Positions 362 to 22,470 of a stretch of DNA of 64,000 bases are shown piece by piece. The notes beneath the pieces were generated by a model. It made no database searches. It worked only from the letters and a program-made list of their open reading frames with translations, and was not told the DNA's origin. This DNA is from Chitinophagales bacterium (GTDB lineage Bacteria > Bacteroidota > Bacteroidia > Chitinophagales > Saprospiraceae). Both the position numbers and the translations under genes were made by a program. Position 1 is the first letter of the stretch, and each line of letters starts with the position of its first letter. The stretch lies in contig JAAFIM010000007.1 of the NCBI GenBank assembly GCA_013297745.1, forward strand, positions 747 to 64,746. The letters are read 5' to 3'.

Positions 362-578
362 GTAAGTAGACAAAAATAAAGTAAAAAATCGCGCGGAGCG
401 CGTAACTACACCAATCCGTTGAGTTTCTATACTGTCTGAAGTGAGACGAAGCGCAGCGGAGCGAACAAGTTTATAGAAACAAGGCGTTTTTGGTACTTTT
501 TGCGCCTGCAAAAAGTACGAAGAAAAAGAAATTTTCAGGCGTAAGCCGTTAAGAAAATTTCCAAAACCCAAGTTTTTG
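362..578. repeat. Structured intergenic repeat family 1, copy A (~220 bp; other copies 22029..22252, 26870..27070, 55771..55997)
   Basis: Near-identical sequence recurs 4 times in both orientations. It contains the perfect hairpin GTACTTTTTGC-nnnn-GCAAAAAGTAC and a GCGCG-loop-CGCGC hairpin whose loop differs between copies. Track ORFs 344..571 and 26802..27005 are just translations of this repeat. Confidence 0.8.
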
Positions 579-629
579 CTAAAGCGTAAAAATTACTTTT
601 ATATTGTCTAATTACTTAATAACTAACAA

Positions 630-3992: not shown

Positions 3993-4607
3993 ATGGTACG
4001 ATTTGTATATTTTGCGCTGCTTTTGTTTGTATCTGCTTGCGCTGCGGATAATCCTAACGCTCAATTTATCGCATCAACCCCCAAAGTAACGGGGCGGGTG
4101 ATAGAAGTGGCTTTGTTTGAGTATGATAGCACGGAAATAATCATACACAAAAGCGATATTTTAAATTATTACTTTGTATTAGAAACGTTTAATCAAACGC
4201 CCGAACCTATAACACTCTGTAATCCTAATCTATTGAAAGAAGGGCAACATCCTTATCCCAACGATTTTTTTCTAAAACGTTGTCGTGTGGGTGTTGAAGA
4301 CGCTTGTATAGATTATATAGTAGGCAATACTATAATTATTCCCCCTTTTAGGAAGCGTTTAGATACCGTGCTTGTGGGTGGATATGTTACGCCTGCTCCT
4401 GGTATGGCTGATTATTATGCTGATATTGAATGGCAAATGGAACATATTAATGAGTATAAAAAAGGCGATTTGATTTGGATATATTCGCCCCGTCCTACGC
4501 CATATTATCAAGATACCATTTTTTACCCTTTTGCCAAAGAGGTAAAATATAGCAAACATTGGAACGGTTTGGACTATTGGCCAGCGGGTTGGCAACGTTC
4601 TATATAA
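3993..4607 (+). CDS. Hypothetical lipoprotein
   Basis: N-terminus MVRFVYFALLLFVSAC is lipobox-like. No recognisable catalytic motif. Confidence 0.5.
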   Translation: MVRFVYFALLLFVSACAADNPNAQFIASTPKVTGRVIEVALFEYDSTEIIIHKSDILNYYFVLETFNQTPEPITLCNPNLLKEGQHPYPNDFFLKRCRVGVEDACIDYIVGNTIIIPPFRKRLDTVLVGGYVTPAPGMADYYADIEWQMEHINEYKKGDLIWIYSPRPTPYYQDTIFYPFAKEVKYSKHWNGLDYWPAGWQRSI

Positions 4608-4609
4608 AG

Positions 4610-4874
4610 AAGTTGTTTAGTAAGAATTTTTCTACATTTTCAATTTAAAAAAATAACCATTTGTGTATTTTAAGCAACAGACTAAAGTCTGTTGTAATCG
4701 TTTTTTTGTCTCTCAACGGGTTAAAACCCGTTGGTATTGATTGATAAAACTGTATAACGCGTGGGACTTTAGTCCCAAAAGCGCGAAAAAATCCTAAATC
4801 TCAATTGTGCTGGGACTTTAGTCCCGCACCATACAGAGAAATTAAAAGATAAAAAAAGCATACTAAACAACTTC
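4610..4874 (+). mobile_element. MITE-like repeat family 2, copy b
   Basis: Starts 3 bp after the stop of 3993..4607. It has the same TIRs and hairpins as 1613..1922. Confidence 0.75.
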
Positions 4875-4930
4875 AAAGATAAAATTCAATAAAGACGAAT
4901 TGCAACTGCCGCAATTCGTCTTATTTTTTG

Positions 4931-10178: not shown

Positions 10179-10209
10179 TATACAGAATTTAAAAAGTAAG
10201 TGTGTAATA
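10179..10209. repeat. 30-bp motif TAATACAGAATTTAAAAAGNAAGTGTGTAATA (copy 1 of 7; acts as inverted-repeat terminus of composite elements)
   Basis: Other copies lie at 21967..21998 and 26843..26874. Inverted copies lie at 10737..10768, 27102..27132 and 27131..27160. Confidence 0.7.
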
Positions 10210-10232
10210 AGAGCTATTAAGCATTATAATTG

Positions 10233-10496
10233 AAGTTGTTTAGTATGCTTTTTTATCTTTTAATTTCTCTGTATTGTGCGGGACTAAAGTCCCAGCACAA
10301 TTGAGATTTAGGATTTTTTTGCGCTTTTGGGACTAAAGTCCCGCGCGTTATATAGTTTTATCAATCAATACCAACGGGTTTTAACCCGTTGAGAGACAAA
10401 AAAACGATTACAACAGACTTTAGTCTGTTGCTTAAAGTACATAAATGGTTATTTTTTTTAATTAAAAATGTAGAAAAATTCTTACTAAACAACTTT
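10233..10496 (-). mobile_element. MITE-like repeat family 2, copy c (inverted)
   Basis: Reverse complement of copies a/b with the same TIR and the ggactttagtcc, aacgggttttaacccgtt and aacagactttagtctgtt hairpins. Confidence 0.75.
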
Positions 10497-10516
10497 ATTA
10501 TAAAAATAAGCGAGAG

Positions 10517-10672
10517 CGTGGGGTTTTATACCCCACGCGGTAAAGAATCTTATTAGCGTTGGGTTTTACACCCAACGCAAGCAAGAATAAAATTTTATAA
10601 AATTATTTTTGGAGTGTTGGGTGTAAAACCCAACACTTATAAGGTTTATTTTATCTACCGCACGGGGTGTAA
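10517..10672. repeat. Array of four related GC-rich stem-loops (8-bp stems, 7-nt loops)
   Basis: gcgtgggg-ttttata-ccccacgc, gcgttggg-ttttaca-cccaacgc, gtgttggg-tgtaaaa-cccaacac, gcacgggg-tgtaaaa-ccccgtgc. Stems differ but keep pairing, and loops are conserved or inverted. Confidence 0.7.
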
Positions 10673-10851
10673 AACCCCGTGCTATTGTAAAAATCTACAC
10701 TCTTGTAACTCCAATATTTTAAATAATTTATGATGCTATTACACACTCACTTTTTAAATTCAGTATTAGTTGTTGATAATGAATTGATTATAAGTAAAAA
10801 AAGCGAAACTCCTAAAGGTTGGGAATTTCGCTTTTTGTGTGTATGCTATTG

Positions 10852-21881: not shown

Positions 21882-22028
21882 AATTATTAGTTGTTAGTGG
21901 TTAGTTGTTGATTAGCAATAATTTGTATGATTTTTGAATAAAGAGTAAATTTTTGTTCTGCGGAAATAATACAGAATTTTAAAAATAAGTGTGTAATAGT
22001 GGTATAAATTATTAAAGACATCAATTAT

Positions 22029-22252
22029 AAAAACTTGTGTTTTGAAATTTTTTTAACGGCTTACGCCTAAAAATTTTTTTTCTTCGTACTTTTTGCAGGC
22101 GCAAAAAGTACCAAAAACGCCCTGTTTCTATAAACTTGTTCGCTCCGCTTGCTAAAGCTGCGCTCCGTCTCACTTCAGACAGTATAGAAACTCAACGGAT
22201 TGGTGTAGTTACGCGCTTCGCGCGATTTTTTACTTTATTTTTGTCTACTTAC
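22029..22252. repeat. Structured repeat family 1, copy B (inverted relative to copy A)
   Basis: Reverse complement of copy A. The terminal gtctacTTAc supplies the stop codon of CDS 22249..22470. Confidence 0.8.
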
Positions 22253-22470
22253 ATATAGTCTTTTAAATCGTCCAAAGGTTCGTTAAAATCATCAGGAATA
22301 CTAAATCCCTTGCCTGCTAAACTGCCAAGTTTTACCCCTTTAGGAGGTTTTGTGTCTTGCTTGGCATCAGGTTTGGCTTCTTGATATTTGACTTTCAAAC
22401 GCTGCAATAGATTGACTATCAGTTGATAATCTTCATCATTATTAAATTCTAAAATTAAATTTTTTTGCAT
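22249..22470 (-). CDS. DUF2281-like small protein (putative antitoxin-type family)
   Basis: The C-terminal FSIPDDFNEPLDDLKDYM motif is characteristic of DUF2281, recalled from memory. Confidence 0.45.
   Translation of the reverse strand: MQKNLILEFNNDEDYQLIVNLLQRLKVKYQEAKPDAKQDTKPPKGVKLGSLAGKGFSIPDDFNEPLDDLKDYM

Follow-up and report, generated by a model that had tools for sequence, protein, structure and literature searches.

Repeat family 1 is a non-coding, hairpin-rich unit that occurs four times in a 64,000-nucleotide stretch of a Saprospiraceae-like Bacteroidota genome (Chitinophagales bacterium, contig JAAFIM010000007.1, positions 747–64,746; the whole stretch is called the window hereafter), and the question that it raises is what kind of element it is. 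A previous reading, made from the sequence only, had given its length as about 220 bp and had left three options, i.e., a palindromic element of the REP/BIME type (repetitive extragenic palindrome, bacterial interspersed mosaic element), a MITE (a miniature transposable element with inverted repeats), and a small non-coding RNA (ncRNA) family. Our data make it very probable that family 1 consists of MITEs, that is, of non-autonomous DNA transposons: the copies are small, dispersed and strain-variable, they have terminal inverted repeats (TIRs), a 3-bp TAA/TTA duplication and clean, precise empty sites, and they contain no conserved open reading frame (ORF) or other coding capacity. MITEs are an ordinary and well-known kind of element, to which this family adds.

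Target duplication, empty sites and ends

Comparison with related strains defines the insertions to the base. The metagenome contig L083 (sample JGI 3300083026) is ~98% identical to the window over 3.1 kb, and its DinB-family protein is the same as that of the window. Its sequence agrees with the window at every base up to position 55733 and continues from 56001, and it hence holds the empty site of copy D; the surplus of 267 bp in the window corresponds to copy D (264 bp) and one TTA (3 bp). The same holds for a sister element of 585 bp that has the long terminal repeats of family 1 and a different cargo. Four related contigs (L091–L094; L091 is from sample JGI 3300005989) lack exactly this element and one TAA: instead of the element between two TAA triplets they have just one TAA, in CAA(C/T)AACTAA followed directly by CTATTAAT. 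Copy A lies inside an array of 7-nt units (heptads) with TAA on both flanks, and removing the copy together with one TAA restores a perfect CTAATAA/CTAACAA array; the CAACTAA heptads that had been noted at some ends are consequently not part of the element but its target. The 3-bp duplication of TAA/TTA is thus seen at A, D and the sister element, in the latter two by comparison with empty sites. Strains with 98–99% identity to one another differ in the presence of copies. Family 1 inserts at TAA/TTA with duplication of the target, has defined ends and has moved recently. A TA duplication of the IS630/mariner type was considered for elements with long ends and discarded, as the empty site gives TAA and the ends start with TACAGAAT.

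Two nested sets of ends are found. Copy B and the full-length metagenome copies are bounded by a TIR of 28–32 bp (TACAGAATTTAAAAAGTAAGTGTG... and ...CACACTTACTTTTTAAATTCTGTA), and the two repeats are 281–311 bp apart in eight full-length copies. In this long form, 28 of 32 positions match between the inverted ends, both in B and in the sister element at 10181–10765. The ends of A and D lie 13–17 nt further in (GTAAGTAGACAAAAATAAAG... and ...TTGTCTAATTACT) and are homologues of the inner portion of the long TIR. The long form is the short form GTAAGTAGACAAAAATAAAG with TACAGAATTTAAAA added outside; the inverted match between short-form ends is 20–22 of 32 positions in A and D (22 of 32 in A). 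The 30-bp motif that had been noticed at some ends is indeed there, and can now be identified as the long-form TIR.

The existence of four copies, in the orientations given previously (plus near 362 and 26870, minus near 22250 and 56000), is agreed upon by direct reading, a repeat finder and a four-way alignment, and in that alignment the copies share 93–99% identity over the core, which extends from CGCGCG through the GTAC hairpin. Their boundaries had been drawn too narrowly: judged by the empty site, the terminal repeats and the flanking TAA/TTA, all four are wider (Table 1). The pattern TACTTTTTG-N6-CAAAAAGTA with at most two mismatches is found at five sites in the window, i.e., in the four copies and in a variant (26551–26574), and the motif AGGCGTAAGCCGTT also at five, each against 0.02 expected from shuffles; a 25-nt end motif is found at six sites against 0.00 expected. 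Together, the three pattern searches exclude a chance origin of the four copies. The variant itself was recovered by nhmmer (E 3.9e-6) and is also present in contigs L059 and L049.

A metagenome scan with GCGTTTTTGGTACTTTTTGC, a 20-mer overlapping the hairpin hp2 described below, returned 36 loci, 17 of which are further family members according to nhmmer; they come mostly from the JGI metagenome samples Ga0075154 and Ga0209812, and 16 of them were included in a 20-copy alignment. None of the contigs carrying these copies is syntenic with the window, which means that the insertion sites differ, and that they provide no additional empty sites. The units measure 255–311 bp and are non-coding: ORFs of at least 80 aa are absent from all copies, and the reading frame of a short ATG-started stretch in B is not maintained in the others. 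Insertions lie in AT-rich intergenic DNA, often in heptad arrays upstream of start codons or by gene 3′ ends.

Table 1 Coordinates of repeat family 1, its structural parts (in copy A) and associated elements in the window
Feature	Position	Strand	Description
Copy A, short-end form	362–616	+	255 bp; ends GTAAGTAGACAAAAATAAAGTAA ... TTACTTTTATATTGTCTAATTACT
Target duplication of A	359–361 (left) and 617–619 (right)	+	TAA
Copy B, long-end form	26846–27128	+	283 bp; ends TACAGAATTTAAAAAGAAAGTGTGTAAT ... ATTGCACACTTACTTTTTAAATTCTGTA
Copy B flanks	26843–45 and 27129–31		TAA and TTA, respectively
Solo extra right terminal repeat after B	27132–27158	+	followed by TAA 27159–61
Copy C, chimera	21970–22252	-	short-form left end and long-form right end
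Copy D, short-end form	55734–55997	-	264 bp; TTA 55731–33 and 55998–56000 (plus strand)
Variant	26492–26600	-	3′ part of a different repeat; upstream core differs
Sister element	10181–10765	+	585 bp; long terminal repeats as in family 1; TTA 10178–80 and 10766–68
P1	390–402	+	CGCGC-GGA-GCGCG; 5-bp GC stem with triloop; invariant in 20 copies; -7.3 kcal/mol
P2 domain	417–486	+	CGUU-GA-GUUUCUAU (417–430) pairs with AUAGAAAC-AA-GGCG (473–486); then U5 (487–491)
P3	433–437/444–448	+	UGUCU/AGACG; enclosed by P2, with variable GGAGCG-repeat segment
hp2	493–518	+	GTACTTTTTGC-GCCT-GCAAAAAGTAC; perfect 11 bp; -15.6 kcal/mol, z -4.8
M3	528–561	+	A/T-flanked mini-hairpin GGC-GUAA-GCC in AAATTTTCAGGCGTAAGCCGTTAAGAAAATTT; -10.4 kcal/mol, z -4.1

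How such a unit would be mobilised can be outlined from its ends. A DDE transposase encoded elsewhere in the genome would bind the terminal repeats and move the unit in trans; the 3-bp TWA duplication would point to an enzyme of an IS5 subgroup or of the PIF/Harbinger type, and the parent element would carry the ends TACAGAATTTAAAAAGTAAGTGTG or GTAAGTAGACAAAAA. The copies would then recombine, with hairpin sub-modules being inserted, inverted or slipped. The TWA duplication expected of IS5-subgroup or PIF/Harbinger mobilisation is present at A, D and the sister element, and does not by itself prove the family. Some IS5 subgroups also give a 3-bp TWA duplication, and since no transposase was identified, the duplication is what links family 1 to either group. 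It is shared with Tourist-type MITEs and with PIF/Harbinger elements, for which a 3-bp duplication is described (PMC2213677).

Several observations weigh against the MITE assignment. Neither a transposase domain nor a transposase with matching ends was detected in the 20 window ORFs checked; the duplication at B is imperfect, with TAA on one side and TTA on the other; C has no duplication; and conservation is lower in the ends than in the core, an unusual state for a family that still moves.

The REP/BIME option, in which palindromes spread as host elements by way of a domesticated, REP-associated tyrosine transposase (RAYT), or of gyrase, integration host factor (IHF) or other host proteins that recognise them, and not through a DDE transposase, would explain why hairpin modules are gained, lost or inverted in a mosaic fashion and why copies are found preferentially at gene 3′ ends, which make up 23 of the 32 scored flanks. 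Moreover, the foot of hp2 is GTAC, one base from GTAG, which tags REPs (PMC3733652). However, REPs have neither terminal repeats nor target duplications, whereas family 1 has inverted repeats of 24–32 bp, a 3-bp duplication and clean empty sites; its unit is 255–585 bp long as against 20–40 bp, no GTAG/CGTC-tagged palindrome of that size is present, and no Y1/RAYT gene is among the 20 window ORFs checked. We regard this option as very unlikely.

As MITEs, the copies resemble the Correia elements (NEMIS) of Neisseria, which are likewise short, non-coding, bounded by TIRs, inserted in intergenic DNA in either orientation with duplication of an A/T-rich target, and variable between strains, and for which, as for family 1, promoter or terminator activity is known or suspected (PMC3184786). 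Correia elements differ in length (104–157 bp as against 255–311 bp), in their TA rather than TAA/TTA duplication, and in carrying an IHF site, whereas family 1 has two nested sets of ends; the internal cores are unrelated and there is no sequence similarity. Within Bacteroidota, the BrickBuilt and other IS5-related MITEs of Porphyromonas gingivalis are comparable in having a modular, variable interior with predicted long stem-loops, and in that, there as here, different MITE types share their ends (of the IS5 type in P. gingivalis) and differ in cargo (PMC4596501). The BrickBuilt ends (GAGACCTTTGCA) match ISPg elements and enclose a minisatellite of 23-nt units, however, while the ends of family 1 are unrelated to these and its interior consists of distinct hairpins.

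A conserved core with several hairpins

RNAalifold places five helices in the 20-copy alignment, i.e., P1, P2, P3, hp2 and the mini-hairpin of M3 (Table 1). Across the alignment, the 3′ arm of P2 reads AUAGAAAC-AR-GGCG and hp2 pairs as GUACUUUUUGC/GCAAAAAGUAC. The perfect 11-bp hairpin GTACTTTTTGC-N4-GCAAAAAGTAC that the sequence-only reading had described stands in all four window copies. A GC stem is likewise present in all four, and reads CGCGC-NNN-GCGCG. The four different loops that had been assigned to it reduce to two, GGA (A and D) and GAA (B and C), which had been read from one strand or the other and out of register. The metagenome copies add the loops AAA and GUA. The argument that conserved stems with variable loops reveal a structural element is weak in this light, given a single loop transition in the window and an 11-bp stem that is invariant within the family. 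In the variant, hp2 does covary (TTACTTTTTTG-CCAC-CAAAAAAGTAA, 26551–26574), and the M3 module with AGGCGTAAGCCGTT is retained at 26522–26535.

The evidence for covariation in the core as a whole is suggestive but thin. In P2, one C-G pair is replaced by U-A in three copies and one U-A pair by C-G in two, and one further, weak pair is double-changed; in P3, a C to U change keeps a G.U pair in four copies. Double changes affect 3 of the 44 pairs, a number that is reached by 8 of 500 shuffles, in a test of low power because most pairs never vary; the six double-changed cells are reached by none of the 500 shuffles. Conservation is a better argument for a function of the core than covariation: mean pairwise identity is 0.95–1.0 in P1, P2, hp2 and the mini-hairpin, and 0.65–0.82 in the terminal repeats and tails. 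A pseudoknot suggested by single-sequence folding (CCGUUG:CAGCGG) was rejected, as a G to A change in two metagenome copies (L066 and L075) breaks it and fits the nested helix, and a mini-hairpin within a 10-nt indel (GCUU-UAGC-AAGC) was taken as unconstrained, being broken in three (L049, L051 and L073).

A function of the core, as a portable terminator or as an RNA, is possible. We tentatively suggest, at below an even chance, that it may be a two-way transcription stop or insulator kept by selection. On the minus strand, P1 is followed by ATTTTTT (ATTTTTTACTTTATTTTT) and is terminator-like, with a match to the terminator consensus in both copies scanned, A and B; on the plus strand, P2 is followed by GCGTTTTTGG / GCGUUUUUGG, where the terminator scan made no call because the loop is large. 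The order of parts in the core is P1, P2/P3, U-run, hp2 and M3, with P2 running into GCGUUUUUGG on the element strand and P1 into AUUUUUU on the opposite strand. A two-way stop of this kind would let the host tolerate insertions close to genes, and the 3′ ends of mRNAs could be set by it. SPRITE, a dispersed mobile repeat that mimics an intrinsic terminator, and BOX, whose modules vary in number as do those seen here, offer parallels (PMC3184786); both belong to other organisms and have other sequences, and the terminator-like motifs of family 1 face both ways and lie inside proven transposon ends.

This proposal meets several difficulties. Copies A and D and the sister element are located 25–55 nt upstream of start codons, A about 40 nt from that of the minus-strand gene at <1–318, and a strong terminator at such a position would shut the gene off. 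Taken by itself, the P2 domain has no exceptional stability (z -1.4), and the single-sequence fold of A favours a helix that competes with it. Finally, the invariance of hp2 within the family is partly a product of the search, as the 20-mer used to collect the metagenome copies overlaps this hairpin.

The alternative that the core is a structured RNA, i.e., a small RNA (sRNA) gene or a cis-acting element that is read from the element strand and is spread by the transposon ends, is rather unlikely in our estimate. It would account for the higher conservation of the core and for the strand asymmetry: in comparison with shuffles, folding of the entire element is better for the element strand (z -3.8) than for its complement (z -2.6), and several invariant G.U pairs as well as the P3 C to U changes fit the element strand exclusively. 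The two compensatory pairs in P2 and the shuffle result for double-changed cells point the same way, as does a related module in AT-rich Firmicutes-like contigs, which, in the manner of an sRNA or leader, is preceded by a TATAAT-like box and closed by a terminator. On the other hand, the core tolerates large insertions of 18–20 nt within the P2 stem, and the count of double-changed pairs given above is low. Inspection by eye revealed no Bacteroidota-type promoter at a fixed position. The orientation relative to genes is mixed and without bias, with 11 copies downstream in the sense and 12 in the antisense direction. Nor does any Rfam family match the element at any threshold: Rfam 15 reports just two tRNA-Val genes in the window at the gathering threshold, and for copy A with E up to 10 just a chance HgcG match in the flank. 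The ncRNA option is so far unsupported, being neither shown nor excluded; the higher conservation of the core than of the ends speaks for some selected function, and the missing Rfam match, the random-looking orientation and the low number of covarying pairs (two to three) speak against an RNA.

Among known mobile repeats with an interior resembling a structured RNA, bcr1 of the Bacillus cereus group is the best precedent. It is mobile, flanked by short direct repeats and strain-variable, it is transcribed, and compensatory changes keep its cruciform-like RNA (PMC3184786). It differs from family 1 in its length of ~155 bp, its 5-bp duplication, its host phylum (Firmicutes) and in that its transcription has been shown, and its sequence has no similarity to family 1.

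A guide-RNA-like scaffold, comparable to the omega RNA of TnpB/IscB, a tracrRNA or the bridge RNA of IS110, carried by a non-autonomous element of the IS200/IS605 type, is an extremely improbable explanation of the same hairpins. The core is of suitable build, with multiple hairpins over ~130–200 nt and terminator-like hairpins at its end, and these are preceded by a CCGUUGAG motif that may resemble the GUCCGUUAUCA "nexus" of Cas9 tracrRNA. However, IS200/IS605 elements, like the PATEs derived from them and omega-RNA carriers, insert 3′ of a fixed tetra- or pentanucleotide and have neither TIRs nor target duplications, and family 1 has both TIRs and a target duplication; the Rfam models HEARO and IS605-orfB do not match, and no nuclease or recombinase gene recurs beside the copies or the related modules.

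A related hairpin module in other phyla

The 3′ part of the core is found well beyond Bacteroidota. It can be described as a module of any hairpin, followed by GCG-U5-GG and the GUACUUUUUGC hairpin, i.e., (G)UACUUUUUG...CAAAAAGUA(C), which in copy A corresponds to the GCGTTTTTGG linker and hp2. A scan of 185,579 species genomes, one per species, found this hairpin at 43 loci, where <0.1 would be expected by chance; the scan required an exact arm, as did the metagenome scan. The hosts are mostly metagenome-assembled genomes (MAGs) of Oscillospiraceae (at least eight), and also include a Ruminococcus, other Clostridia and two Elusimicrobia. The module was found, in addition, in AT-rich Firmicutes-like contigs, in two further contig families and in one virus- or plasmid-like contig family from IMG/VR (module loci L003–L043, L052/L053/L068/L069/L076, L050/L077, L060, L008/L032 and L080–L082).

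Among these unrelated repeats, there is very little sequence difference in the linker and the second stem. As linker, Oscillospiraceae have GCGTGTTTTTGG and family 1 has GCGTTTTTGG, always with some other hairpin before it, and the second stem shows covariation from family to family among the loci retrieved (GUGAC/GUCAC, GUAAC/GUUAC, GUUC/GAAC and GUCC/GGAC). A coding reading of the hairpin region was dismissed, since the frames differ between families through indels of 1–2 nt and loops of 3–6 nt. The settings of the module vary. In Oscillospiraceae, a conserved mosaic of ~350 nt has it as its 3′ portion, and in the Elusimicrobia it comes immediately after the stop codon of a gene for glutamate dehydrogenase. 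In the AT-rich Firmicutes-like contigs (L052:1380–1520, L076:380–530, L069 and L053) it forms, as a terminator plus hairpin, the end of a conserved stretch of ~150 nt (AAAGTAGTYCGSTTCCGGTTA.., GTAGAA.GCT.CA, CTCCGCAGGAGCCGTTTGYAGGGG), which in L052 lies behind the TATAAT-like box; the stretch has no Rfam match and resembles a small RNA or leader of an undescribed kind.

Searches around the module gave little to identify it by. No protein gene recurs beside it at the 43 species loci and 11 others, where just spurious GC-rich ORFs cluster; Rfam reports nothing at the module in 37 related loci; literature searches with the hairpin and linker strings returned unrelated primers or nothing; and the Oscillospiraceae version yields at most chance-level matches in annotated collections. 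We consider it unlikely that the 3′ half of the core is a functional module in its own right, a widespread, undescribed motif which mobile repeats acquire or are built around. Such a module might bind a conserved host factor, or serve as a portable cassette for termination or insulation. If the module is functional, it would be a compact, portable element reused by very different bacteria and their mobile DNA, and it is this part, in a modest way, that deserves a further look.

Genes and other repeats around the copies

Much of the intergenic repeat DNA of this genome is explained by the units and their bounding 30-bp motif, which is of value for its annotation. They also account for contig breaks in its metagenome assemblies and for strain differences: a toxin gene has given way to one copy, and others have come to lie between a promoter and a start codon. 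The genes nearby are ordinary chromosomal and housekeeping genes (sucA, priA, the gene of ribosomal protein S20, a bactofilin gene and a dinB-like gene), the nearest named homologues of one window protein are from Saprospiraceae MAGs, Aureispira and Phaeodactylibacter, and blastn of the element against plasmid and phage collections found no match.

Copy C is the one that has taken the place of a toxin gene. In the window, positions 21882–22470 hold a degraded toxin-antitoxin pair that consists of a 73-aa DUF2281-type antitoxin ORF (22249–22470) and the last ~25 codons of a PIN toxin gene; copy C begins in or just after the stop codon of the antitoxin ORF and sits between it and the toxin remnant, in place of ~340 bp of the toxin gene. 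Three related contigs (L086–L088), in which a CCG-domain protein is 99% identical to that of the window, have the antitoxin and the PIN toxin between sucA and the CCG gene, intact in L086:87–744 (84-aa antitoxin and 133-aa PIN toxin), and share the junctions ...GACTATATGTAA and TTATTTCCGCAG... with the window; in L090, which is more distantly related, both the toxin pair and the element are missing. The left end of copy C is a deletion or recombination junction. The simplest reading is that a short-end copy would have recombined with a long-end copy, or that an adjacent deletion would have occurred, with removal of the vapC-like toxin gene.

Copy D lies between a TACCTTTG box (55703–55710) and the dinB-like gene (56056–56586). 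The sequence-only reading had described the copy as lying just downstream of this box. The box is not a promoter of the element, because the empty allele in L083 shows the original arrangement, in which the box stands before the dinB-like gene and the copy has been inserted between the two. The insertion stretches the putative 5′ leader of this gene from ~95 to ~360 nt and places the terminator-like P1 with its U-run ~45 nt before the ATG; its expression may differ between the window strain and the L083 strain. Inside copy D, at 55798–55812, 15 nt of the inner M3 (AGGCGTAAGCCGTTA) have been turned round in place relative to the other copies, with short inverted A/T runs on either side, which looks like the result of a template switch or of recombination inside a quasi-palindrome.

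Other small changes in the mosaic are a 10-nt insert (AGCTTTAGCA) in C and D, located within the GGAGCG-repeat segment that is variable in other copies too, and a micro-insert of 16–17 nt, AGGGAGGGCTT(A)CGCCG, which has TTC on both sides and is present in six metagenome copies (L049, L051, L057, L065, L067 and L079) at two positions and in both orientations (alignment columns 39–58 and 174–190). A sequence related to the micro-insert is found near the variant, at ~26600–26620 of the window.

The heptad arrays (CTAATAA/CTAACAA, CAACTAA) lie directly upstream of start codons, at 340–361 together with 617–640, at 21885–21915 and at 57590–57631. Both copy A and the 585-bp sister element landed in such arrays, which act as landing pads because they supply TAA. 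Arrays of TAACTGA, a comparable phenomenon, have been reported in Beggiatoaceae, Cyanobacteria and a few Bacteroidetes (PMC4679880). The cargo of the sister element, which stands ~25 nt upstream of the start of a caspase-domain gene, is a mosaic of about eight other hairpins (GGGACTAAAGTCCC, CAACGGGTTTTAACCCGTTG, CGTGGGGTTTTATACCCCACG and others).

Further repeats were noted. A three-copy family with 81–96% identity occupies 1609–1925, 4603–4891 and 10215–10502, the last inside the sister element, and another repeat family at 26600–26840 (..CTGGTTTTTGGCGTCGCACGGCG..) adjoins copy B and is also found beside family-1 copies in L059 and L049. Tandem units of 21 nt (TTGCAAGACAACGCGCCAACT) at 57468–57593 differ in copy number from those in the ~98%-identical strain (L083:1652–1751), and seven tandem units of 18 nt (CAAAATACAACCAACGGG) at 61935–62096 lie inside an ORF of 890 aa (61092–63764) without a Pfam match.

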